Source of the DNA: an uncultured Ruminococcus sp. | Lineage (GTDB): Bacteria > Bacillota > Clostridia > Oscillospirales > CAG-272 | Direction of reading: 5' to 3' | NCBI GenBank assembly: GCA_902795355.1 | Contig: CADBKZ010000002.1 | Location: 62,236 to 126,235, forward strand | Length of the DNA: 64,000 bases | Part shown: positions 13,738 through 48,154 of the stretch, piece after piece | Layout of the letters: each line of letters begins with the position of its first letter | Numbering within the stretch: the stretch's first letter is position 1 | Notes under the pieces: generated by a model | The model's database searches: none | What the model was told of the DNA's origin: nothing | The model's input: only the letters and a program-made list of their open reading frames with translations | Position numbers and translations under genes: made by a program

Positions 13738-14091
13738 TGTTGAAAATTCCTTTCCGAAATTTTGTTTTTATGTTTGGGTTTGTTTTGCGCCGCCCGTTCC
13801 CGCTTGGCGGAAACAGGCGAGGGGGAGCGCGCCGGCTCCCCCTCTTCCGATTGCGCGCGGCAACCGAAAAACCCCGCCGAGCCGTGTAGCCGGAAATTTT
13901 GAACCCTGTAAGTCAGGGCGGCGTCCTCTCCCTTCCCCTTTACTGCTCCCAACGTCCGCGGCCCGCTCGGGACAAGTCAACCGACGGCGGGTGCGGGAGG
14001 TCTGCAAACCGGAGATCGGTCAGACTCCTTTGATTGATTGTAGGCCCAATATGCCGACTATCACGCACACGGCAGGTTCAAAATACGGATT

Positions 14092-32314: not shown

Positions 32315-32782
32315 TTGCCCATGATGATGAACGCCACCGTTCGGCGCGGGGACATCTACTATGCGGATTTGAGCCCCGTTGTCGGCTCGGAACAGGGGGG
32401 ACTGCGCCCCGTTCTGATTATTCAGAACGACATCGGCAACCGATACAGCCCCACCGTGATCGCCGCCGCGATTACTTCCCGCCTCGATAAAACGCACCTG
32501 CCCACCCACATTGATATTTACGCCGATCAGGTCGGCCTCGCGAAAGATTCGGTGATCCTGCTCGAACAGATCCGAACGCTGGATAAACGCCGTTTGCGCG
32601 AGAAAGCGGGACACCTCGACGCGCCGATGATGGACGAGGTCAACACCGCCATTGCCATCAGCTTCGGCCTCGGGAGCGCGCAAGAGGACGCGCAGGCCCG
32701 CGCGCGTTTGCGCGAGAACCACGCCCGCTTTGCCGCCTCGGTGGGCGGCGAACATCCAACGCTTCCGCGCGGCGTTTCCTGA
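32315..32782 (+). CDS. mazF: MazF/EndoA (PemK) family endoribonuclease toxin with about 36-aa C-terminal extension; no adjacent antitoxin
   Basis: [45 protein letters not shown]...[17 protein letters not shown] closely resembles B. subtilis EndoA as I recall it. Start is ambiguous among the TTG/ATG codons at 32315-32329. Confidence 0.85.
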
Positions 32783-33745: not shown

Positions 33746-33774
33746 TTGACAAAGCGGAAAAGATGTGCTATAAT
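33746..33774 (+). promoter_or_regulatory. Promoter TTGACA-17-TATAAT driving T-box leader 1
   Basis: ttgaca at 33746-33751, 17-nt spacer, tataat at 33769-33774. Confidence 0.75.
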
Positions 33775-33780
33775 ACAGAA

Positions 33781-34056
33781 AATCAAACAAAAAGCGATGA
33801 CGAAGAAGGTCTGCGCCGATGTGTTTGCAGAGACCCGATGGTTGGTGCGAATCGGGAACACGGGCAAAAGACCCATCCCTTCCGAGCCGAAAGCGCGAAT
33901 CGGGGACGCTCCCCCATAGTAGTGTTTTCCGTGATTGCCGCGTGAGAGCATACGGGCTGTCTGGCCCCGAGGGATAACCGAAAGGTTATAATTTGAGTGG
34001 TACCGCGAGTGTAGAATACACCCGTCTCAAAGAAACGAGACGGGTGTATTTTTTTA
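33781..34056 (+). promoter_or_regulatory. T-box riboswitch leader 1 (hand-folded specifier AUC = Ile, tentative)
   Basis: GA/K-turn start agcgatgacgaag; AGAGA (33829-33833); distal-loop ggttggtgcga; T-box motif aatttgagtggtaccgcg (33990-34007); terminator atacacccgtctc / gagacgggtgtat plus T7 (34015-34056). Confidence 0.85.
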
Positions 34057-34085
34057 TGATTTCTCGAAAAAAAGGAGACAAAAAC

Positions 34086-36353
34086 ATGGCAACGGTTGCA
34101 AACGAAAAGCTGAACGAGATCGCCGCGCGGATCCGCGAGATGCGCGAAATTGCGGGATTCGAAACGGCCGAAATGGCGCAAAAAACCGAGGTAAGCGAGG
34201 AAGATTACCGCCTTTATGAATCGGGTCAACTCGATTTTCCGTTTACCTTTATTCACAAATGCGCGCTCGCGTTCGGCGTTGGCATTACCGACCTGCTGGA
34301 AGGGCAAAGTGCGCGCCTGCAATCCTACACGGTCACGCGCCGCGGGCAGGGGCAGGAGACCGCGCGCGAGGCGGGCATTGAAATTCAGAACCTTGCGCCG
34401 CTGTTCCGCAAAAAGATTGCGGAGCCGTATTGGGTGCGCTATACGTACAGCGAGGAGCTGCAGCACAAGCCCATTCACCTGACCAAGCATTCGGGGCAGG
34501 AGTTCGACTTTGTAATGAGCGGGCGGCTCAAAGTTCAGATCGGGGAAAATGTGGAATACCTCGGCGAGGGCGACAGCATTTACTACAACAGTTCCACGCC
34601 GCACGGCATGATCGCCGTGGACGGGCAGGATTGCCTGTTTGTCGCCGTGGTCCTCCCGGGAGAGGACGAATCCGAAACCGTTGTCCGCGAAACGTTGATC
34701 GCGGGTCGCTCGGGCAGCCGCTCGCTCGTTGCCGAACAGTTTGCGGAATGCACCGAGGACGAAAACGGGTTGGTCACGTCGGTCGCGTTCCATAACGAGG
34801 ACCGCTTCAACTTCGCGTTCGACATTGTGGACGCCATTGCGAAAAAATCGCCCGATAAGCTCGCCCTGCTCCACATTTCAAGGGAGAAAACCGAGCGGCG
34901 GTTCTCGTTCAACGACATCAAGCGCGCCTCGGCGCAATGCGCCAACTACTTCAAGGCCATCGGCATTCAAAAGGGCGACCGCGTAATGCTCGTTCTCAAA
35001 CGGCATTACCAATTCTGGTTCGCCATTCTCGGCCTGCATAAGCTCGGCGCCATCGTGATTCCCGCCACCAACCAATTGCAGGCGCACGACTTTGAATACC
35101 GCTTCCAAGCCGCGGGCGTTACCACGCTGATTTGCACGGCGGACGGGGACGTTGCACACCAAGCGGAGCTTGCCGAGGCGTCCTGCGGAATGTCCCTGCG
35201 CAAGCTGATGGTTGGCGGCGCGCGCGAGGGATGGCGCGATTTTGACGCGGAATACCCGCTTTACAGCGCGCATTTCTACCGCTCCGACGACACCCCCTGC
35301 GGCCGCGACCCCATGCTGATGTTCTTTACCTCGGGCACCACGGGCTACCCCAAAATTGCCGTTCATTCCTACCAATACCCGCTCGGCCATTACCTGACCG
35401 CCAAGTATTGGCACGGCGTGAGCGACGACGGCCTGCACTTTACCATTTCGGACACCGGCTGGGGCAAGGCGCTCTGGGGCAAGCTCTACGGGCAGTGGCT
35501 CTGCGAGGGCGCGGTGTTCGCCTACGACTTTGACCGTTTCGACGCTTCCGACATTCTGCCCATGTTCGCCAAATACGGCATTACCACCTTCTGCGCGCCG
35601 CCCACCATGCTCCGCATGATGATCAAACAGGATATTTCGCAATACGACCTTTCCTCGGTGCGCCGCATGACCACGGCGGGCGAGGCGCTCAACCCCGAAG
35701 TCTACCGCCGGTTCGAGCAGGCAACGGGACTGCGCATTATGGAAGGCTTCGGACAAACCGAAACCACGCTGACCATTGCCAACTTTATCGGCGGGCCGCA
35801 TAAGCTCGGCTCCATGGGCAAACCCTCTCCCCTGTTCGACATGGATCTGGTGGATGCAAACGGCAACCCCGTTGCCGACGGCGAGGTGGGGGAGATCGTG
35901 GTCCGCACCGACCGCCGCGTTCCCATCGGCCTCTTCCTCGGCTACTACCGCGACCCCGAAAAGACCGCAGAGGTCCTGCACGACGGCCTCTACCACACCG
36001 GCGACACCGCATGGCGCGACGAGGACGGCTTCTATTGGTACGTCGGCCGCGTGGACGACGTAATCAAGTCCTCGGGCTACCGCATCGGTCCGTTCGAGAT
36101 TGAAAGCGTGATCATGGAACTTCCCTATGTTCTGGAATGCGGCGTTTCCGCCGCGCCCGACGAGGTGCGCGGGCAGGTGGTCAAGGCTTCCATTGTGTTA
36201 ACGAAAGACGCCGAGCCCACCGAGGAATTGAAAAAAGAAATCCAGAACTACGTCAAAACGCACACCGCGCCGTATAAGTACCCCCGCATTGTGGTGTTCC
36301 GGAACGAGCTTCCCAAAACCATCAGCGGAAAGATTCAGCGGAACAAATTGTAA
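34086..36353 (+). CDS. Fusion protein: XRE-type HTH plus cupin domain plus AMP-forming medium-chain acyl-CoA synthetase (paralog 1)
   Basis: Start MATVANEKL after AGGAGA RBS, 755 aa. HTH (IAARIREMREIAGFETAEMAQKTEVSEEDYRLYESG), cupin (HSGQEFDFVMSGRLKVQIGE...GDSIYYNSSTPHGM), then adenylation motifs FTSGTTGYPK, ISDTGWGKALWGKLYGQW, GYYHTGD-like LYHTGDTA, SSGYRIGPFEIES, PKTISGKIQR. Confidence 0.88.
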   Translation: MATVANEKLNEIAARIREMREIAGFETAEMAQKTEVSEEDYRLYESGQLDFPFTFIHKCALAFGVGITDLLEGQSARLQSYTVTRRGQGQETAREAGIEIQNLAPLFRKKIAEPYWVRYTYSEELQHKPIHLTKHSGQEFDFVMSGRLKVQIGENVEYLGEGDSIYYNSSTPHGMIAVDGQDCLFVAVVLPGEDESETVVRETLIAGRSGSRSLVAEQFAECTEDENGLVTSVAFHNEDRFNFAFDIVDAIAKKSPDKLALLHISREKTERRFSFNDIKRASAQCANYFKAIGIQKGDRVMLVLKRHYQFWFAILGLHKLGAIVIPATNQLQAHDFEYRFQAAGVTTLICTADGDVAHQAELAEASCGMSLRKLMVGGAREGWRDFDAEYPLYSAHFYRSDDTPCGRDPMLMFFTSGTTGYPKIAVHSYQYPLGHYLTAKYWHGVSDDGLHFTISDTGWGKALWGKLYGQWLCEGAVFAYDFDRFDASDILPMFAKYGITTFCAPPTMLRMMIKQDISQYDLSSVRRMTTAGEALNPEVYRRFEQATGLRIMEGFGQTETTLTIANFIGGPHKLGSMGKPSPLFDMDLVDANGNPVADGEVGEIVVRTDRRVPIGLFLGYYRDPEKTAEVLHDGLYHTGDTAWRDEDGFYWYVGRVDDVIKSSGYRIGPFEIESVIMELPYVLECGVSAAPDEVRGQVVKASIVLTKDAEPTEELKKEIQNYVKTHTAPYKYPRIVVFRNELPKTISGKIQRNKL

Positions 36354-36442
36354 AAAACACCCGCGTTTTCCGTTTTTTCGGCAATAATCCGGCCGGAATT
36401 GCAAGTTTTTCCGTATAAAATTGCAGAAATTAAAAAAAGCGT

Positions 36443-36471
36443 ATTGACAAAAAAGCCACTTTGTGATAAAA
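36443..36471 (+). promoter_or_regulatory. Promoter TTGACA-17-TAAAAT driving T-box leader 2
   Basis: ttgaca at 36443-36448, 17-nt spacer, taaaat at 36466-36471. Confidence 0.7.
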
Positions 36472-36477
36472 TGTTAT

Positions 36478-36770
36478 CATCATAACAAAGGCGACGAAGG
36501 AAAGGGCTCCGTGCGGAGCGGTTCCCGCAGAGAATTGGCGGTTGGTGCAAGCCATGGAACGCGCGCGGCGTTTGTAGTTCCCGAGCCGGAAAGAAGAAAG
36601 CGGTTCTCCCGCAAGTAGAACTTTCCCGTGATTGCTGCGTCAAGGCATACGGATTCTTCGGGATCCGGACGAGTGGCGGCCCATGCGACCGCAATTTGAG
36701 TGGTACCGCGAGTGTGATTTTGCGCACCCGTCTCAAAGTCAGAACGCTTTGGGACGGGTGCGCTTTTCGT
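36478..36770 (+). promoter_or_regulatory. T-box riboswitch leader 2 (hand-folded specifier GUA = Val, tentative)
   Basis: GA/K-turn ggcgacgaagg; AGAGA (36529-36533); ggttggtgcaa distal loop; T-box motif aatttgagtggtaccgcg (36693-36710); terminator gcgcacccgtc / gacgggtgcgc plus tttt (36722-36770). Confidence 0.85.
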
Positions 36771-36789
36771 CCCCGAAAGGATGTGCTTT

Positions 36790-39069
36790 ATGACAGAACT
36801 TGATCAAAAGATCCGCGAGATGGCGCAACGGATCCGCGAGCTGCGCGAAATCGAGGGATTTTCTCCCGAACAGATGGCCGCGGGGACCGACACTTCGGTG
36901 GAAGAATACCTTGATTGCGAGAACGGCCGCAGCGACCTGAACTTTGCTTTCATCTACCGTTGCGCAAACCTTCTCGGCGTAAATGTGACCGACATCATCG
37001 AGGGTTACAGCCCCAAACTCCGCTCCTATACCGTTACCCGCAGCGGCGACGGGCAGGAAGTTGCCAAGGCGCACGGCATGACCTATTTCAACCTTGCCTA
37101 CGATTTCCAGAACCGCATTGCCGAGCCGCTGTACGTCACCATCGACTACAACGCCGAGGCCGAACGCCGCGAGATTGAACTCACCACCCACGACGGGCAG
37201 GAATGCGACATTGTGGTGCGCGGGCATCTGACCGTTCAGGTGGGAAACCACCGCGAAACGCTCGGCCCCGGGGACAGCATCTATTTTGACAGTAAGACCC
37301 CCCACGGTATGATTGCGACGGGCGGCGAAAACTGCGTGTTCTACGCCATTGTCCTCAACCCGTCCGGCGAGCCGATCCCCGAGCTGGAATCCCCCGCTCC
37401 CGTAACCGAGCCGACGCCCGCGCGTCGCGACGACCGCGACCGCATCTGGCGCAATTTCATTGACGTGGAAGAGGATGAAAACGGCGCGCCGCTCTCCATC
37501 CGCTTCAAGAACGCCGACCGCTTCAACTTCGCGTTCGATTTGGTGGACGCGCTTGCCAAGCGCGAGCCGGAAAAGCTCGCCATGCTCCATGTTGCCAAAG
37601 ATAAAACCGAACGACGCTTCACCTTTACCGATATGAAGCGCGCCTCGGCGCAATGCGCCAACTACTTCAAAGCCATCGGCGTCAAAAAGGGCGACCGCGT
37701 GCTGCTCGTTCTCAAACGGCATTACCAATTCTGGTTCGCCATGCTGGGGCTGAACAAGCTCGGCGCCATCGGCATTCTCGCCACCAACCAGCTGCAAGCG
37801 CACGATTTCGAATACCGCTTCAACGCGGCGGAAATTTCAGCCGTTCTCTGCACCGCGGACGGCGACACCGCGCATCAGGTGGACCTTGTTGCCGGCGTTT
37901 GCCCCTCGCTCAAAGAGAAGATCCTTGTTGGCGGTTCGCGCGAGGGCTGGCGGAATTTCGATGAGGAATACCCGCTTTACAGCGCGCATTTCCACCGTAC
38001 CGAGGAAAGCCCCTGCGGCAACGACCCCATGATCGCCTTCTTTACTTCCGGCACCTCGGGCTACCCCAAACTCGCGCTTCATAATTGCAAGTACGCCCTC
38101 GGCCATTTCCACACCGCCAAATATTGGCATACCGTGGATCCCGACGGCCTGCATTTTACCATTTCGGATACGGGCTGGGCAAAATCCATGTGGGGCAAGC
38201 TCTACGGGCAATGGCTCTGCGAAGCCCCGATCTTCGTTTACGATTTCGACCGCTTCGACGCGGCCGACATCCTGCCCATGTTCGCCAAGTACCATATTAC
38301 GTCGTTCTGCGCGCCGCCCACCATGCTCCGCATGATGATCAAGCAGGATATTTCCAAGTACGATTTTTCTTCCGTGGAGCATATGACCACGGCGGGCGAG
38401 GCGCTCAACCCCGAGGTCTACCGCCAATTCGAGCGGCTCACGGGTTTGCAGATCCACGAGGGCTTCGGCCAATCCGAAAGCACCATGATCATCGGCAACA
38501 TGGTCGGCTCGCCGCATAAAGTGGGCTCCATGGGCAAACCCGCGCCGATCTACGACGTGGAATTGGTGGACGCGAACGGCAAACCCGTGAAAAACAGCGA
38601 AAACGGAGAGATCGTGATCAACCTTAAAAACGGACTTCCCTGCGGGCTTGCCACCGAATACTACCGCGATCCCGAAAAAACCGCCGAAACTTGGCGGAAC
38701 GGCTATTACCATACGGGCGACGTGGCTTGGCGCGACGAGGACGGGTATTATTGGTATGTCGGCCGCGTGGACGACGTAATCAAGTCCTCGGGCTACCGCA
38801 TCGGTCCGTTCGAGATTGAAAGCGTGATCATGGAGCTTCCCTATGTGCTGGAATGCGGCGTTTCCGCCGCGCCCGACGAAGTGCGCGGGCAGGTGGTCAA
38901 GGCTTCCATCGTGTTAACAAAGGGTACCGAACCCACCGAGGAACTGAAAAAGGAAATCCAGAATTACGTCAAAGCGCACACCGCTCCGTATAAGTACCCC
39001 CGCATTGTGGTGTTCCGCGAAAGCCTGCCGAAAACCGTGAGCGGCAAAATCCAGAGGAATCTGCTATGA
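36790..39069 (+). CDS. Fusion protein: XRE-type HTH plus cupin domain plus AMP-forming medium-chain acyl-CoA synthetase (paralog 2)
   Basis: Start MTELDQKIREMAQRIRELREIEGFS after GAAAGGA RBS, 759 aa. Same three-domain layout as paralog 1. The C-terminal roughly 100 aa are nearly identical to paralog 1. Confidence 0.88.
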   Translation: MTELDQKIREMAQRIRELREIEGFSPEQMAAGTDTSVEEYLDCENGRSDLNFAFIYRCANLLGVNVTDIIEGYSPKLRSYTVTRSGDGQEVAKAHGMTYFNLAYDFQNRIAEPLYVTIDYNAEAERREIELTTHDGQECDIVVRGHLTVQVGNHRETLGPGDSIYFDSKTPHGMIATGGENCVFYAIVLNPSGEPIPELESPAPVTEPTPARRDDRDRIWRNFIDVEEDENGAPLSIRFKNADRFNFAFDLVDALAKREPEKLAMLHVAKDKTERRFTFTDMKRASAQCANYFKAIGVKKGDRVLLVLKRHYQFWFAMLGLNKLGAIGILATNQLQAHDFEYRFNAAEISAVLCTADGDTAHQVDLVAGVCPSLKEKILVGGSREGWRNFDEEYPLYSAHFHRTEESPCGNDPMIAFFTSGTSGYPKLALHNCKYALGHFHTAKYWHTVDPDGLHFTISDTGWAKSMWGKLYGQWLCEAPIFVYDFDRFDAADILPMFAKYHITSFCAPPTMLRMMIKQDISKYDFSSVEHMTTAGEALNPEVYRQFERLTGLQIHEGFGQSESTMIIGNMVGSPHKVGSMGKPAPIYDVELVDANGKPVKNSENGEIVINLKNGLPCGLATEYYRDPEKTAETWRNGYYHTGDVAWRDEDGYYWYVGRVDDVIKSSGYRIGPFEIESVIMELPYVLECGVSAAPDEVRGQVVKASIVLTKGTEPTEELKKEIQNYVKAHTAPYKYPRIVVFRESLPKTVSGKIQRNLL

Positions 39070-39749
39070 AATTCCGCCGCGTAACCCTGCTTTCGGGGCA
39101 TTACGGGAGCGGGAAAACCAACATTGCGGTCAACCTCGCGCTCCGCATGCGGGAGCAATACCCCCGCGTTGCCGTGGCCGATCTTGACATTGTGAACCCC
39201 TATTTCCGCACCAAGGACAGCGACGCCGATTTTGCCCACGCGGGCATCCGGCTGATCTCCTCGGCGTTCGCCAATTCCAACCTCGACCTGCCCGCCATGC
39301 CGCAGGACCTTTACGCCGTTACCGACGACCGCTCGCTCCGCGTGATCGTGGACGTCGGCGGCGACGACCGCGGCGCGCTCGCGCTCGGCCGGCTTGCCCC
39401 CGCCCTGCTGGAAGAGAACGACTTTGAAATGCTGTTGGTAATTAACCGCTTCCGCCCGCTCACGCGCGACGCGGCTTCCACGCTCGAGGTCAAAGCCGAA
39501 ATCGAGGCGGCCTGCGGCATCCCGTTCACGGGCATCGTCAACAACTCCAACCTCGGCGCGGAAACCACCGCCGAAACCGTGCTTTTCTCGGCGGCCTATG
39601 CGGAAGAGGTCGCCCGCCTTTCGGGGCTGCCCGTTGTGTACACCTCGGCGGTAACGTCGGTTTGCGAACAACTCGCGGGCAAAATTCCGAACCTGCTTCC
39701 CCTGCGCCTGCAAAAGAAAATTACCGATAAACGGGAGGATCCGACATGA
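39066..39749 (+). CDS. P-loop NTPase of unknown function (MinD/CooC/SIMIBI-like appearance)
   Basis: 227 aa. MKFRRVTLLSGHYGSGKTNIAVNLA (Walker A), VADLDIVNPYF, VDVGGDDRG. ATGA overlap with the upstream stop. Confidence 0.65.
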   Translation: MKFRRVTLLSGHYGSGKTNIAVNLALRMREQYPRVAVADLDIVNPYFRTKDSDADFAHAGIRLISSAFANSNLDLPAMPQDLYAVTDDRSLRVIVDVGGDDRGALALGRLAPALLEENDFEMLLVINRFRPLTRDAASTLEVKAEIEAACGIPFTGIVNNSNLGAETTAETVLFSAAYAEEVARLSGLPVVYTSAVTSVCEQLAGKIPNLLPLRLQKKITDKREDPT

Positions 39750-41035
39750 AAAAACCGACGGTGGAAACCATTTGCGTTCAGGGCGGCTACCGCCCAAAGA
39801 ACGGCGAACCCCGCCAAGTCCCCATCGTTCAAAGCACCACTTTCAAATACGATACGGGCGAGGACATGGGCAAGCTGTTCGATCTGGAAGCCAGCGGCTA
39901 TTTCTACACCCGCCTGCAAAACCCCACCAACGACGCGGTTGCGGCCAAAATTGCCGAAATGGAAGGCGGAACCGCTGCCATGCTCACCTCGTCGGGTCAG
40001 GCGGCAAACTTCTATGCGGTGTTCAACATCGCGTCCTGCGGCGACCACGTAATCTCCTGCTCGTCCATCTACGGCGGGACCTTCAACCTGTTCTCCGTTA
40101 CCATGAAGAAAATGGGGATCGACTTCACCTTTCTCTCCCCCGACGCCTCGGAAGAGGAGCTGGACGCCGCGTTCCGCCCCAACACCAAGGCGGTGTTCGG
40201 CGAGACCATCGCCAACCCCGCGCTCCGCGTGCTGGACATTGAAAAGTTCGCGCGCGCCGCGCATCGCCACGGCGTGCCGCTGATCGTGGACAACACGTTC
40301 GCCACCCCCGTCAACTGCCGCCCGTTCGAGTGGGGCGCCGACATCGTGACCCACTCCACCACCAAGTATATGGACGGCCACGGCAGCGGCGTCGGCGGCT
40401 GCATTGTGGATAGCGGAAAATTCGATTGGAGCCGCTACCCCGACCGTTTCGCGGGGCTTTGCACGCCCGACGAAAGTTACCACGGCGTTACTTATGTGGA
40501 GCGTTTCGGCATTGGCGGCGCGTTCATTACCAAAGCCACCGCGCAACTGATGCGCGATTTCGGCTCCATTCAATCCCCGCAGAACGCGTTTCTGCTCAAC
40601 ATGGGGCTGGAAAGCCTGCATGTGCGCATGAAACGCCATTGCGAGAACGGGCAGGCGGTTGCGGAATTTCTTGCGAACGACCCGCGCGTTTCGTGGGTTT
40701 CCTACTGCGGTCTCCCGACCGACCGCGACTATACCTTGGCGCAGAAATACCTGCCCAACGGCTCCTGCGGCGTGGTCAGCTTCGGGGTTAAAGGCGGCCG
40801 CGCCGCGGCGGAAGCGTTCATGCGCAATCTCAAAATCGCCGCCATCGAGACTCACGTTGCCGACGCGCGCACCTGTTGCCTGCACCCCGCAAGCACCACC
40901 CACCGCCAGATGAACGACGAGGAATTGCTCGCCGCAGGCGTTTCCCCCGACCTCGTCCGCTTCTCCTGCGGGCTTGAAAGCGCGGAGGACCTGATTGCCG
41001 ACATTGACCAAGCGTTGGCGGCCGTAAATGTCTGA
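39746..41035 (+). CDS. metY: O-acetylhomoserine sulfhydrylase / aminocarboxypropyltransferase (PLP, Cys/Met metabolism family)
   Basis: 429 aa. IVQSTTFKYD, GYFYTRLQNPTND, HSTTKYMDGHG (PLP-lysine block). 4-bp overlap with the upstream gene. Confidence 0.85.
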   Translation: MKKPTVETICVQGGYRPKNGEPRQVPIVQSTTFKYDTGEDMGKLFDLEASGYFYTRLQNPTNDAVAAKIAEMEGGTAAMLTSSGQAANFYAVFNIASCGDHVISCSSIYGGTFNLFSVTMKKMGIDFTFLSPDASEEELDAAFRPNTKAVFGETIANPALRVLDIEKFARAAHRHGVPLIVDNTFATPVNCRPFEWGADIVTHSTTKYMDGHGSGVGGCIVDSGKFDWSRYPDRFAGLCTPDESYHGVTYVERFGIGGAFITKATAQLMRDFGSIQSPQNAFLLNMGLESLHVRMKRHCENGQAVAEFLANDPRVSWVSYCGLPTDRDYTLAQKYLPNGSCGVVSFGVKGGRAAAEAFMRNLKIAAIETHVADARTCCLHPASTTHRQMNDEELLAAGVSPDLVRFSCGLESAEDLIADIDQALAAVNV

Positions 41036-41071: not shown

Positions 41072-41278
41072 ATGTCGAAACTGACCTTCAACACCGACAA
41101 CTGCAAGGGTTGCGGACTCTGCGTGGATGCCTGTCCCAAGCATATCCTGCGCCTCGCGACCGACAAGATCAACAAAAAGGGACATCACCCCGCCGAGATC
41201 ATCGATCAAGCGGCTTGCATCGCCTGCGCGTGCTGCGCGCTGATGTGCCCTGACGTGATCATTACGGTGGAGAAATAA
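41072..41278 (+). CDS. 4Fe-4S ferredoxin-type delta subunit of 2-oxoacid:ferredoxin oxidoreductase
   Basis: 68 aa with two CxxCxxCxxxCP motifs (CKGCGLCVDACP, CIACACCALMCP). Confidence 0.85.
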   Translation: MSKLTFNTDNCKGCGLCVDACPKHILRLATDKINKKGHHPAEIIDQAACIACACCALMCPDVIITVEK

Positions 41279-41290
41279 GGAGGGGAGCAA

Positions 41291-42355
<1,065 letters not shown>

Positions 42356-42356
42356 C

Positions 42357-43112
42357 ATGGTCGTATTTCAAAAACCGCACGCCCTGACCGACGCGCCGTT
42401 CCATTATTGCCCCGGGTGTACCCACGGCATTATCCACCGTCTGGTCGCCGAGGTGATCGACGAACTCGGCATCGAGGGCAAAACCATCGGCATCGCCCCC
42501 GTGGGCTGCTCGGTGATGGCCTATAACTACTTCAACTGCGATATGATCGAAGCCGCGCACGGCCGCGCGCCCGCCGTTGCCACCGGCGTTAAGCGCGCCA
42601 ACCCCGAAAACATTGTGTTTACCTATCAGGGCGACGGCGACCTCGCTTCCATCGGCATGGCCGAAACCGTCCACTCGGCGGCGAGAAACGAAAACATCAC
42701 CGTTATCTTCATCAACAACGCGATCTACGGCATGACGGGCGGGCAAATGGCCCCCACCTCGCTCCCGGGTCAGGTAACGCAAACCTCTCCCTACGGCCGC
42801 GATGTGAAAGCCTGCGGCTACCCCATCCGCGTTTGCGAGATGCTCTCGGAGCTGGAAGGCCCCGAATACCTCGAACGCGTGACCGTGAACAGCGTTCCCA
42901 ACATCCGCAAAGCGAAAAAAGCCATCCGGAAGGCGTTTCAGAACCAGATTGAGGGCAAGGGCTTCTCGCTGATCGAGGTGATCTCTTCCTGCCCCACCAA
43001 CTGGGGCATGACGCCGCAAGCGGCGCTCAAATGGATTGACGACAAGATGATCCCCTACTACCCGCTCGGCGTTTACAAGGACCGTTCCGCACAGAAGGAG
43101 GAAGCGAAATGA
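42357..43112 (+). CDS. 2-oxoacid:ferredoxin oxidoreductase beta subunit (TPP-binding)
   Basis: 251 aa. CPGCTHGI, GDGD...NNAIYGMTGGQ thiamine-diphosphate motif. Confidence 0.85.
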   Translation: MVVFQKPHALTDAPFHYCPGCTHGIIHRLVAEVIDELGIEGKTIGIAPVGCSVMAYNYFNCDMIEAAHGRAPAVATGVKRANPENIVFTYQGDGDLASIGMAETVHSAARNENITVIFINNAIYGMTGGQMAPTSLPGQVTQTSPYGRDVKACGYPIRVCEMLSELEGPEYLERVTVNSVPNIRKAKKAIRKAFQNQIEGKGFSLIEVISSCPTNWGMTPQAALKWIDDKMIPYYPLGVYKDRSAQKEEAK

Positions 43113-43642
43113 AAACCACACAGTTCCTTTTCTCCGGTTTCGGCGGTCAGGGCATCCTGTTCGCGGGCAAGTTCCTCGCCTACAAAGGGCTGATCGAGGG
43201 CAAGCAGGTCAGCTGGCTCCCGTCCTACGGTCCCGAAATGCGCGGCGGAACGGCGAGTTGCAGCGTAATCGTCAGCGACGGCGCGGTGGGTTCGCCCATT
43301 GTTTCCAAGCCCGATGTGCTGGTTGCCATGAACCTTCCCTCGCTCGACCGGTTTGAATCCTCGGTCGTCCCCGGCGGCATGATCTTTGCCGACAGCACGC
43401 TGATTGAGCGCAGGACGGCGCGCGACGACGTAAAAGCGTTTTACGTTCCCGCAACCAAGCTCGCGAGCGACAACGGCTACCCCACCCTTGCCAACATGAT
43501 TCTGCTCGGCAAAATTCTCGCCGAGCTCGGCGAGTTCAGCGGCGAGGGCGTGGAAGCGGCCCTTGCAAAGGTGATTTCCGCCAAGCACGCCGACATGAAA
43601 GAAGTCAATCTGAACGCCCTGCGTCTCGGCGCGGCGCAATGA
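43109..43642 (+). CDS. 2-oxoacid:ferredoxin oxidoreductase gamma subunit
   Basis: 177 aa. FSGFGGQGILFAGKFLA, SYGPEMRGGTA. ATGA overlap with the beta subunit gene. Confidence 0.85.
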   Translation: MKTTQFLFSGFGGQGILFAGKFLAYKGLIEGKQVSWLPSYGPEMRGGTASCSVIVSDGAVGSPIVSKPDVLVAMNLPSLDRFESSVVPGGMIFADSTLIERRTARDDVKAFYVPATKLASDNGYPTLANMILLGKILAELGEFSGEGVEAALAKVISAKHADMKEVNLNALRLGAAQ

Positions 43643-43659
43643 ACAAGGAGAACATTACC

Positions 43660-46142
<2,483 letters not shown>

Positions 46143-46161
46143 GTTTTTTGGGTGAAAGACC

Positions 46162-46207
46162 TTGAGAGGACCCCCTTTTTCTCGCGAGAAAAAGGGGGTC
46201 CTCTCAA
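46162..46207. repeat. REP-like terminator hairpin, copy B (downstream of gdhA)
   Basis: ttgagaggaccccctttttctcgcgagaaaaagggggtcctctcaa, flanked by gacc / actctc. It is the reverse orientation of copy A relative to the plus strand, and the same orientation relative to the gene it follows. Confidence 0.85.
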
Positions 46208-46274
46208 ACTCTCCCCCGCAAAAAGAGCAAAATCAGGAATCTCTTTGCGTTCGCTCTTTTCAAATAGAGCAAAC

Positions 46275-46312
46275 AAAAACACGGGTCAACATTTTTTGAT
46301 ACCCGTGTTTTT
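46275..46312. terminator. Terminator hairpin at the 3' end of the AT-rich islet operon
   Basis: aaaaacacgggt / acccgtgttttt stem with flanking A/T runs. Confidence 0.75.
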
Positions 46313-46317
46313 CTTTT

Positions 46318-46560
46318 TCATTTTGGGTTCCAACGGTTTGACGACGGCGTGTCTTTTGTTTGCTCTTTCTTTTTATCAAGGTTTCCCCCGATTTTGTCGC
46401 CTGTCAACCCGCCAATAATGGCTCCGACAATCGCGCACGGAACAGTCCCTGCAATTGCTCCGAGCGGACCCGCCGCAATTCCGATTCCCGCTCCGAGCTT
46501 TGCTCCTGCAACCAATCCGGCAATCGCACCGCCTGCCGCGCCTTTTTCCGAGTTTTTCAT
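46318..46560 (-). CDS. Glycine-zipper small membrane protein
   Basis: 80 aa. GAAGGAIAGLVAGAKLGAGIGIAAGPLGAIAGTVPCAIVGAIIGGLTG (GxxxG repeats), Lys-rich tail. Confidence 0.7.
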   Translation of the reverse strand: MKNSEKGAAGGAIAGLVAGAKLGAGIGIAAGPLGAIAGTVPCAIVGAIIGGLTGDKIGGNLDKKKEQTKDTPSSNRWNPK

Positions 46561-46594
46561 CTTTTTCCTCTCTCTTCTATAATTTAATTATAAT

Positions 46595-47296
46595 CTATCT
46601 GTTATAGACGGGGGGAAGCTCCCAACCACCCCAATTACTATGGCCACGGCAATATGTATTTGTTTTGTTGATCAAATCCCATGCCCAAATATGTCCCTTT
46701 TGTTCCAATCGGTCTTGATCCATATACATATATGCTAATCCCACATACACATAATCTGTGTTTGTTTTAATTTCTTTCCCTGTCTTCTTTATTTTATATC
46801 TTGCGTGAGCAATCTCAGATCCATGTTCTGTGTTTCGCACGGAAACATCTGCTGTCGTATCTTTATCTCCGAGTTTTCCCCAATTTAAAAAAACAATCCA
46901 TACTTCTATGTAGAGCAGATCTTTCTCATGCGTTTGCTGATCGACAAATTGATCGTTGAATTGAGAATATAACGCAAAAGAAATATTGTTATATCCAAAA
47001 CCATGCCCATGATTGTCGAAAAAAAATATATCATAAGAACCGGTATAGGGATTGATGATAGTGCTTTTCTCTTTCCCTCGTAAATAATCTTTAATTGCCC
47101 TGCTGTCGCTCCGCCATGCACAATAGCAATGATTTATCAATAACGAAAATACCAATATCAGCAAAATTGCGACAATGATTTTTCTTTTTTTATTAGGCTT
47201 AAAGTGCTTCTTGGATGGCGCAATTCCTTCTTCTATTTGTGTTTCTTCCATTGCTGATATCCCAACATCTAATATTTTCTTGTTTTCTTTACGCAC
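46595..47296 (-). CDS. Hypothetical single-pass membrane protein with aromatic-rich extracytoplasmic domain
   Basis: 233 aa from a GTG start overlapping the upstream stop (an alternative ATG 15 codons in is possible). TM IIVAILLILVFSLLINHCYCAW. No family recognised. Confidence 0.55.
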   Translation of the reverse strand: MRKENKKILDVGISAMEETQIEEGIAPSKKHFKPNKKRKIIVAILLILVFSLLINHCYCAWRSDSRAIKDYLRGKEKSTIINPYTGSYDIFFFDNHGHGFGYNNISFALYSQFNDQFVDQQTHEKDLLYIEVWIVFLNWGKLGDKDTTADVSVRNTEHGSEIAHARYKIKKTGKEIKTNTDYVYVGLAYMYMDQDRLEQKGHIWAWDLINKTNTYCRGHSNWGGWELPPVYNR

Positions 47297-47699
47297 CTAA
47301 ATATTCTTGAATTACCTTGATAATTTTTTGCGGCAACTGTTTTTGCTGATACATTCCGATTGCAGAGGTAATCGTCAGCGGCCATGCAAAAATAAACATC
47401 CCGACAGTCATCGCAACGCCCTTATCTCCCCATTTTGCTTCCCCGATTTCCACGTTGACCGAAGATTGATCCTTTAACACGTTGAAACGAACTGTAATAG
47501 CTTTATCCAAGCCGAAAAGCTGCTTAAATCCTCCGCCGCGAACGCGCCCTTGGAGCGTACAAACACTCCCGTTCGGATCGGGCATAAAAACCTGCGTTTC
47601 CATGTTTTCCCCCTCGGAAAGATAGCTTTCCACATACTGCACCAACTCACCTGCGCTTCTGTACGGCGGCAGATAAAAAGAATAGGATTGTAAAGCCAT
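47289..47699 (-). CDS. Hypothetical protein with C-terminal TM helix
   Basis: 136 aa, GGAGAA RBS. C-terminal helix VAMTVGMFIFAWPLTITSAIGMY. No family recognised. Confidence 0.6.
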   Translation of the reverse strand: MALQSYSFYLPPYRSAGELVQYVESYLSEGENMETQVFMPDPNGSVCTLQGRVRGGGFKQLFGLDKAITVRFNVLKDQSSVNVEIGEAKWGDKGVAMTVGMFIFAWPLTITSAIGMYQQKQLPQKIIKVIQEYLGA

Positions 47700-47744
47700 A
47701 TGAAATTCTCCTTTTAATATTTGATTTAATCTTCTGTATTTTTT

Positions 47745-47773
47745 ATTATATCAGATTAAAAGCGATTTGTCAA
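47745..47773 (-). promoter_or_regulatory. Consensus promoter TTGACA-17-TATAAT (minus strand) for the three-gene islet operon
   Basis: Plus strand shows attata (47745-47750) and tgtcaa (47768-47773). Confidence 0.7.
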
Positions 47774-47836
47774 TAGAAATATCGTATTTTTTGCAACATT
47801 TTTTGGGTGTATATCGTGTACAATATATGATAGGGG

Positions 47837-48154
47837 GTGATCCGGTTGTTAGAAGAAGATTTTTCCTTGCGGCTTGCAAAATTAAGGATGCAAAAAGGCG
47901 TTTCGGCACGGGATATGAGTTTGTCTTTGGGACAAAACGCAGGCTATATCAACAGCATTGAAAACGGCAAAGCGTTGCCGTCCATGAGCCTGTTCTTTTA
48001 TATCTGCGACTATTTGGAAATTACTCCCGCCGCATTTTTTGAAACGGAAGATCCTGCCCCTGTTAAAATGAAACCGTTGGTTGAAAAGTTGCGGCAATTG
48101 CCTGCCGATCGATTGGATCATATTGAAACGCTTGTGGACGATCTGTTGACATAA
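47837..48154 (+). CDS. XRE-family helix-turn-helix transcriptional regulator
   Basis: LRLAKLRMQKGVSARDMSLSLGQNAGYINSIENGKALPS is a canonical HTH_3 signature. Non-ATG start, exact start uncertain. Divergent from the islet operon. Confidence 0.8.
   Translation: MIRLLEEDFSLRLAKLRMQKGVSARDMSLSLGQNAGYINSIENGKALPSMSLFFYICDYLEITPAAFFETEDPAPVKMKPLVEKLRQLPADRLDHIETLVDDLLT

Follow-up and report, generated by a model that had tools for sequence, protein, structure and literature searches.

The locus described here raises the question of why an acyl-coenzyme A (CoA) synthetase would carry at its N-terminus the two domains of a small-molecule-responsive transcription factor. The two genes concerned, A and B, lie in tandem on a stretch of 64,000 nucleotides (nt) from an uncultured Ruminococcus sp. 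(assembly GCA_902795355.1, contig CADBKZ010000002.1, positions 62,236 to 126,235), which as a whole is called the window. A sequence-only reading of this DNA had proposed that each gene encodes an XRE-type helix-turn-helix (HTH) and a cupin barrel fused in-frame to a complete adenylate-forming enzyme, and that the product is either a trigger-enzyme-like regulator or an enzyme with an allosteric sensor. Precedents for an enzyme and an N-terminal domain of the DNA-binding type in one polypeptide are the trigger enzymes BirA (also adenylate-forming), PutA and NadR. We found that the fusion is real, that it derives from a two-gene cassette and that the paralogs differ chiefly in their HTH-cupin modules, which we tentatively regard as ligand sensors.

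Both open reading frames are indeed continuous (755 and 759 aa), with no internal stop in either of them, and the architecture that had been read from the letters was recovered by Pfam and by structure prediction. In protein A, HTH_31 and HTH_19 match residues 11-73 with 24.3 and 23.4 bits, slightly under their gathering scores, and are followed by Cupin_2 (residues 134-188, 41.7 bits), AMP-binding (residues 250-621, E 1.8e-63) and AMP-binding_C (residues 671-749). In protein B, HTH_19 scores over its cut-off (33.3 bits), again followed by Cupin_2 (52.2 bits), AMP-binding (E 1.3e-56) and AMP-binding_C. AlphaFold2 folded the first 196 residues of protein B into a five-helix XRE-like domain and then a cupin barrel, with a mean predicted local distance difference test score (pLDDT) of 92.4. 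The XRE-cupin layout, with an N-terminal XRE-type HTH followed by a cupin barrel, is thus found in A and B by Pfam, by AlphaFold2 and by the best PDB match of the module in Foldseek, 1Y9Q (E 8.8e-14); a sequence search of the PDB with the module gave nothing significant (best E 0.024). Three of the motifs quoted for the enzyme part (YHTGD, SSGYRIGPFEIES and PKT(I/V)SGKIQR) are present in both proteins; a fourth, TSGTTGYPK, is correct for A, and B reads TSGTSGYPK. The linker described as acidic and 40 aa long exists as well, although it is shorter: about 20 residues (193-211) are disordered (pLDDT <50 in the full-length AlphaFold2 model), and the remainder (approximately residues 215-245) is an N-terminal extension of the synthetase that unfused partner enzymes also have.

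An assembly or frameshift artefact was ruled out by 112 full-length intact orthologues translated from other genomes and by the identical fusion protein on three contigs. The 120 best-matching database clusters for A all measure 754-757 aa and have the same domains, and a further 120 more distant clusters (728-772 aa) show the same architecture. The fusion is therefore real, and it is widespread, occurring in hundreds of genomes of gut and rumen Clostridia. The sequence-only reading had noticed neither how common it is nor that elsewhere the same parts form an obligate two-gene cassette. The architecture sits unannotated in public databases, and our literature searches on the fusion returned no description of it.

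The origin of the fusion became clear from its unfused relatives. A search with the N-terminal 220 residues as the query gave numerous HTH-cupin proteins that stand alone, 181-195 aa long and 32-44% identical, which belong to a family with about 3000 hits. On three unrelated contigs 18-30 nt separate the stand-alone gene from a downstream gene for a synthetase of about 550 aa, and in a metagenome sample all 75 loci with room downstream (75/75) show the HTH-cupin gene followed by the synthetase gene, at a median gap of about 24 nt, so that the cassette order, with a stand-alone HTH-cupin gene (184 aa) ahead of the synthetase gene, holds for 78/78 loci overall. The partner synthetases are 50-54% identical to the enzyme domains in the window. 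Given this invariable adjacency and the identity of the partners, each of the window proteins is a fusion of an obligate two-gene cassette. In a crude neighbour-joining tree most of the fused modules fall in one clade and a few elsewhere, and the fusion may thus have happened more than once.

The two genes are distinguished by their leaders. The claim that a protein-level sensor is layered over an RNA-level T-box stands in so far as both leaders are real (E 1e-19 for A and 4e-13 for B), with the caveat that both score under the Rfam gathering score of 93. For that reason a default Rfam scan misses them: at the gathering threshold no RNA was reported anywhere in the window, and the T-boxes surfaced in E-value mode only. 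A stem I with a specifier loop, a T-box sequence and a terminator/antiterminator alternative were nevertheless found upstream of both genes, and the terminators of both leaders are strong. The guess that valine and isoleucine are the relevant amino acids proved right, as the specifier codons are Ile for A and Val for B and are conserved in the leaders of orthologues, about 120 of them, in 80 related genomes. Read as a column from alignments, the specifier was ATC in 41/41 alignable A-type leaders and a Val codon (GTA, GTC or GTG) in 75 of the 77 B-type genes with a leader. The promoter layout of gene A, TTGACAAA-17-TGnTAnAAT, is kept in orthologues too. At three related loci (L042, L043 and L044) the gap between A and B is only 29-57 nt and contains no second promoter or T-box, so B is presumably co-transcribed there under the A leader. 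At the cassette loci no T-box was found (0/77). Literature searches on T-boxes and CoA ligases gave no description of such a combination, and in the 2008 T-box survey the terms 'acyl', 'AMP-binding' and 'ferredoxin oxidoreductase' have no occurrence.

Another important finding was the uneven divergence of the two proteins. A and B are 66% identical overall, in line with the tandem paralogs that had been proposed, with 45-51% identity in the N-terminal module and 71-93% in the enzyme. In the HTH, the mean identity of orthologues to the window copy is 0.67 (B-type) and 0.61 (A-type), against 0.45 for A versus B within the window; the corresponding values are 0.67, 0.72 and 0.51 for the cupin, 0.72, 0.71 and 0.71 for the N-domain of the synthetase and 0.89, 0.89 and 0.93 for its C-domain. 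The DNA of A and B is 54-63% identical across the module and up to 95% identical in the 3' part of the enzyme, where a 77-nt identical run ends at 36118; the mosaic patch covers 36018-36167 and its counterpart in gene B (about 38730-38880). This pattern indicates gene conversion that is recent and limited to the synthetase part. The own paralog was the nearest neighbour of the module in 0/38 genomes and of the C-domain in 6/38. Both the DNA mosaic and the nearest-neighbour counts argue that gene conversion homogenises the enzyme and that selection holds the modules and one pocket residue apart. The unusually high conservation of the C-domain among orthologues (A residues 652-755, B residues 656-759; 89% versus 71-72% for the N-domain) could be due to an additional contact surface or to gene conversion that has occurred repeatedly.

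A-type and B-type proteins carry different fixed residues at eleven positions. Ten of these (51, 56, 57, 70, 75, 94, 97, 99, 114 and 218) lie in the module or the linker and one in the enzyme. Those in the helical domain are located in or beside helices 4-5, with none in helices 2-3, and positions 94, 97, 99 and 114 belong to the first three strands of the barrel, where hydrophobic side chains are exchanged. Such exchanges would be expected of a pocket that tells the Ile branch from the Val branch. Judged from these patterns, paralog identity resides mainly in the HTH-cupin module.

Whether the HTH still binds DNA is central to the role of the module. In a bifunctional enzyme-repressor, the dimeric module would bind an operator that belongs to its own promoter or to other genes for branched-chain amino acids, and would be released by a branched acid in the cupin, and expression would then require both demand (T-box) and precursor supply (repressor). 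We consider this somewhat unlikely on the basis of several features of the domain. Its net charge is -7 in A and -8 in B (mean -5.6 over 78 fused and stand-alone members), and the helix2-turn-helix3 segment carries -6 in A and B and -4 in one stand-alone member, versus 0 in E. coli PuuR and SutR. Neither protein has on helices 2-3 the polar or basic surface with which DNA would be contacted; helix 3 bears the family signature ExYxEYExG, and the canonical base-contact positions are acidic (Glu/Asp) or variable, even among close orthologues. Within the orthologues the entropy of helices 2-3 is the highest in the domain and that of helices 4-5 the lowest, and, as said, no residue of helices 2-3 separates A from B. 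In addition, near-consensus promoters and attenuators already provide control of both genes.

The search for operators combined inspection of the promoters by eye with k-mer enrichment and with statistics on inverted repeats. In the fused genes, 102 orthologous promoters anchored at the start of the T-box revealed no conserved inverted repeat, and the promoter hexamers and leader elements were their only conserved features. The cassette promoters (71-77) likewise had no conserved inverted repeat; promoter-like words were enriched, and the repeats were terminators and heterogeneous AT-rich sequences. The acidic HTH, the low conservation of helices 2-3 and this lack of a conserved operator make us favour a ligand-sensing allosteric domain over a DNA-binding enzyme-repressor, although the preference is a tentative one; the paralog-specific residues, which lie in helices 4-5 and in the first strands of the cupin, point in the same direction.

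The cupin offers a plausible place for the ligand. His134, Glu138 and His172 (B numbering) do not vary among the members of the family, whether fused or stand-alone, and the pocket of 1Y9Q holds D-methionine, a precedent for the binding of an amino acid (PMC7901475). The same invariant His-x3-Glu...His triad could also suggest a catalytic cupin, in which the barrel modifies an acid, an acyl-CoA or a 2-oxo acid and the fusion forms a two-enzyme channel. Foldseek indeed matched the module to HppE, Psf4, HEPD and MPnS (E 1e-13 to 1e-9, with HppE and Psf4 at about 1e-13), and the linkage to the synthetase is obligate. The fold has the 2-His-1-carboxylate site and the helical domain of HppE, at an identity of 17-21% that indicates resemblance rather than membership. 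The known relatives are oxidative enzymes of aerobic antibiotic producers (12-21% identical across the group) that depend on oxygen or peroxide, whereas the hosts of the fusion are gut and rumen anaerobes; oxygenase-type catalysis is considered unlikely in strict anaerobes. The pathway described below has no need of such chemistry or of an extra step, the conversion of isobutyrate to valine in particular having no stereocentre to fix, and the non-enzymatic regulator PuuR keeps the same three residues, so we regard a catalytic cupin as highly improbable.

The HppE group is instructive in another way, as it has the same two-domain layout and its helical domain is not a DNA binder, which provides a precedent for a non-transcriptional role. 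The helical domain of HppE mediates oligomerisation, and the module could similarly be a structural appendage that senses no small molecule, for example a handle for dimerisation or a site at which the oxidoreductase or the ATPase encoded downstream docks. Helices 4-5 and helix 1 are its best conserved surfaces, and the 89% identity of the synthetase C-domain among orthologues is what a contact surface might show. Such an appendage leaves the invariant metal-type triad, the paralog-specific changes in the first cupin strands and the amino acid in the pocket of the nearest solved structure unexplained, and is in our opinion improbable.

In the ligand-sensor reading, the module of the fused proteins would no longer be mainly an operator-binding repressor, and would tune the attached enzyme after translation. 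Its His-Glu-His site would bind most likely the end-product amino acid, or possibly a 2-oxo acid or a branched acid, with the helical domain acting as a scaffold or as an interface. The A module would be tuned to the Ile branch and the B module to the Val branch, with the T-box reporting demand at the RNA level and the cupin reporting the metabolite level at the protein level. The more specific proposal that a captured XRE-HTH and cupin now act as an amino-acid-specific allosteric domain (Ile for A, Val for B), in two-tier feedback with the T-box, is put forward as a possibility and with greater reserve. BirA, PutA and NadR would differ from such a protein in that its sensor is a separate cupin domain and not the active site, and in that its sequence features argue against DNA binding.

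Several observations weigh against this reading. In Pseudomonas, all XRE-cupin proteins studied act as local repressors of adjacent metabolic genes and bind palindromes as dimers (PMC7901475), and by analogy the cassette, in which the stand-alone protein always adjoins a synthetase gene, resembles such a local regulatory unit. The known factors (PuuR/PauR, PsdR, ErfA, SutR and 1Y9Q) share with the window module the five-helix domain and the cupin with a ligand pocket, and share with the cassette the close linkage to an adjacent gene for a metabolic enzyme. They differ from the window proteins in that they are stand-alone proteins of about 180-200 aa and not modules covalently fused to an enzyme, and in that the window module has a strongly acidic and variable HTH, no operator that we could find and T-boxes that already control transcription; the PuuR model matches the cupin only (E 1e-4). 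The stand-alone relatives share the acidic HTH with the fused proteins, and acidity therefore cannot separate fused from unfused members, nor exclude DNA binding by itself. Motif searches can miss operators that have co-evolved with their regulators or that are situated at other loci. The HTH fold is kept and modelled with high confidence, R14, R19, Y40, E44 and G46 are strictly conserved, and the flexible linker of about 20 aa would permit independent dimerisation. The full-length AlphaFold2 model has a predicted template modelling score of 0.56, with no confidence in the interdomain geometry, and we infer both the identity of the ligand and the allosteric action.

A further point on the same side is a subclade of dead enzymes. 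In five clusters (P0158 and P0391-P0394) the P-loop is degenerate (QSYS...), and most of these proteins lack the A10 Lys and two lack the A7 Asp of the adenylate-forming enzymes, while the HTH-cupin module and its triad are kept and the whole protein remains conserved. In the two contigs examined (2/2) the gene of the dead-enzyme protein takes the place of B after an intact A-type gene and lacks its own T-box; an Ile T-box precedes the A-type gene in one of the two. The HTH of the dead paralog is less acidic (-3). The loci are L170 9001-11268 and L171 3020-5296 (proteins P0393, P0391 and P0158). As judged from sequence, the subclade is a probable pseudoenzyme with a non-catalytic role. A dead synthetase that is kept under constraint implies a function of the polypeptide beyond catalysis, possibly a transcriptional one, in that lineage. 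Of the two alternatives offered by the sequence-only reading, the sequence features thus lean to the sensor, and the regulator is kept alive by the XRE-cupin repressors and by this subclade.

We also examined what the enzymes themselves may do. The best NCBIfam model for both A and B is MbcS (NF047394), at 414 bits each, far below the equivalog cut-off of 850, so that equivalog status does not apply, and the best solved relative is Macs of Methanosarcina acetivorans (3ETC, E 1.5e-191). The ANL motifs A3 (T/S-S-G-T/S-T/S-G-x-P-K), A7 (Y-x-T-G-D), A8 (G-R-x-D-D-x-I-K) and the catalytic Lys of A10 (P-K-T-x-S-G-K) are all present in A and B, with Lys749 (A) and Lys753 (B) aligned to Lys609 of E. 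coli Acs. In the same alignment Trp414 of the Acs pocket is replaced by Gly and Val386 by Ala in both proteins, which indicates an enlarged acyl pocket. The ANL core motifs and the change of Trp414 to Gly are common to Macs, MbcS of S. aureus and the window enzymes. The single enzyme position that is fixed differently between the paralogs (Gly in A, Ala in B) falls in the motif DTGW[G/A]K and aligns with Val310 of Acs, which we take to be an acetate-pocket residue. Macs has Gly at this position, and its GWGK pocket motif is thus also that of the A paralog; the unfused partner enzymes mostly have Ala. Macs prefers 2-methylbutyrate and is active without an extra domain (PMC10455477). Macs and MbcS have no N-terminal module and are active alone, unlike the fused window proteins, and the context of the window genes points to amino acid synthesis and not to fatty-acid synthesis. 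From the preference of Macs, the known rumen routes and the specificities of the T-boxes, the simplest interpretation is that A serves the Ile branch as a 2-methylbutyrate-CoA ligase and that B serves the Val branch as an isobutyrate-CoA ligase.

The genes downstream of B, an operon that the sequence-only reading had overlooked, form the basis of this most likely role of the enzymes. They encode a P-loop ATPase, an O-acetylhomoserine sulfhydrylase, a four-subunit 2-oxoacid:ferredoxin oxidoreductase of the VOR type, the branched-chain aminotransferase IlvE and a glutamate dehydrogenase (Table 1). The start of the ATPase gene overlaps the stop of gene B (ATGA overlap), pointing to translational coupling, and genes 3' of B overlap by their start and stop codons, including the start of ilvE and the end of the gene for VOR gamma. 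The VOR subunits have the Pfam domains Fer4, POR_N/PFOR_II, TPP_enzyme_C and POR of a four-subunit VOR, and the alpha subunit passes the NCBIfam VorB model (544 bits versus a cut-off of 399). The order A, B, ATPase, Fer4 subunit, VOR alpha, beta and gamma, IlvE is found again in about 40 genomes, which belong to Oscillospiraceae, Acutalibacteraceae, Ruminococcus, Christensenellaceae and unclassified Clostridia and all come from samples of the gut or rumen. The ATPase is kept between B and the VOR genes in these genomes and may be a factor for Fe-S maturation or cluster loading of VOR. In most of the related genomes the sulfhydrylase gene is not at this position: it lies upstream of A (L009 and L010), follows ilvE (L022) or is missing from the locus altogether.

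The Ile and Val T-boxes together with the downstream VOR, IlvE and glutamate dehydrogenase point to the synthesis of Ile and Val by reductive carboxylation, and the operon very probably constitutes a T-box-gated route from branched acids to these two amino acids. Uncharged tRNA-Ile would cause read-through of the A leader, and the product of A would convert 2-methylbutyrate to its CoA thioester; uncharged tRNA-Val would switch on gene B, the product of which would activate isobutyrate. VOR would carboxylate the acyl-CoAs reductively to 2-oxo acids, which IlvE would transaminate with glutamate as the amino-group donor, probably supplied by the glutamate dehydrogenase. According to references cited within PMC7356843, rumen bacteria make Val from isobutyrate and Ile from 2-methylbutyrate, and also Leu from such acids. 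A point to be set against the proposed route is that we infer the substrates of A and B and the biosynthetic direction of VOR from context. The rumen route of reductive carboxylation was reportedly defined by labelling by Allison and co-workers and is said to have been known biochemically since the 1960s. It shares with the window operon the same gene set (acyl-CoA ligase, VOR and IlvE) and the rumen or gut hosts; what the window adds is genes, T-box control and sensor-fused ligases. Literature searches on the genes of this route found neither the operon nor the genes described.

If these assignments hold, the locus would give genes and a regulatory logic to a biochemically known Val/Ile route in abundant uncultured Clostridia, and would extend the targets of T-boxes to precursor-salvage CoA ligases. 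It would also represent a natural experiment, in which tandem enzymes are kept alike by gene conversion and their sensor modules are kept apart by selection. With the paralogs one could study how an XRE-cupin module tells ligands apart, and whether a former transcription factor can turn into an allosteric domain or stays an enzyme-repressor in one polypeptide. The unfused cassette pairs, which number in the thousands, and the subclade of dead enzymes offer material for comparison.

Table 1. Positions of the fused genes, their control elements and the downstream genes in the window
Feature	Position	Strand	Remarks
Sigma-70 promoter of gene A	33746-33774	+	TTGACA-17-TATAAT with TG extension, 12/12 consensus positions
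T-box leader of gene A	33788-34032	+	Rfam RF00230, 87.8 bits, E 1e-19
Specifier codon of gene A leader	33875-33877		AUC (Ile)
T-box sequence of gene A leader	from 33998		UGGUACCGCG
Intrinsic terminator of Ile T-box	34013-34060	+	16-bp stem, T run
Gene A	34086-36353	+	755 aa, ATG behind AAGGAG ribosome-binding site
Gene A, XRE-like HTH	34086-34310		aa 1-75
Gene A, cupin	34311-34661		aa 76-192
Gene A, disordered linker	34662-34727		aa 193-214
Gene A, Macs/MbcS-type acyl-CoA synthetase	34728-36350		aa 215-755
Gene A, acyl-pocket residue	35463-35465		Gly460
Sigma-70 promoter of gene B	36444-36472	+	TTGACA-17-TAAAAT with TG extension, 11/12 consensus positions
T-box leader of gene B	36485-36738	+	Rfam RF00230, 62.3 bits, E 3.8e-13
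Specifier codon of gene B leader	36574-36576		GUA (Val)
T-box sequence of gene B leader	from 36701		
Intrinsic terminator of Val T-box	36722-36773	+	18-bp stem, T run; sole terminator between A and B
Gene B	36790-39069	+	759 aa
Gene B, HTH	36790-37014		aa 1-75
Gene B, cupin	37015-37365		aa 76-192
Gene B, linker			aa 193-218
Gene B, acyl-CoA synthetase	37444-39066		aa 219-759
Gene B, acyl-pocket residue	38179-38181		Ala464
P-loop ATPase, CbiA/ParA/Mrp type	39066-39749	+	227 aa, all family matches weak
O-acetylhomoserine sulfhydrylase	39746-41035	+	inside the operon in this genome
VOR-type four-subunit 2-oxoacid:ferredoxin oxidoreductase	41072-43642	+	Pfam domains, NCBIfam VorB
VOR delta	41072-41278		
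VOR alpha	41291-42355		
VOR beta	42357-43112		
VOR gamma	43109-43642		
IlvE, branched-chain amino acid aminotransferase	43639-44721	+	NCBIfam 476 bits, cut-off 307
NADP-specific glutamate dehydrogenase	44793-46142	+	NCBIfam 774 bits, cut-off 536

Some further features of the window lie outside the operon. The E-value scan of the whole window gave a probable 6S RNA (RF00013) at 13867-14081 on the minus strand, with 44.8 bits versus a gathering score of 46.4 and an E-value of 9e-06. An open reading frame of 153 aa for a toxin of the PemK/MazF type is located on the plus strand at about 32321-32782, just upstream of an esterase gene. Directly after the glutamate dehydrogenase gene, the G+C content of positions 46001-48000 drops to 0.42, versus about 0.58-0.60 in the flanks, and this segment may be foreign or non-coding DNA.

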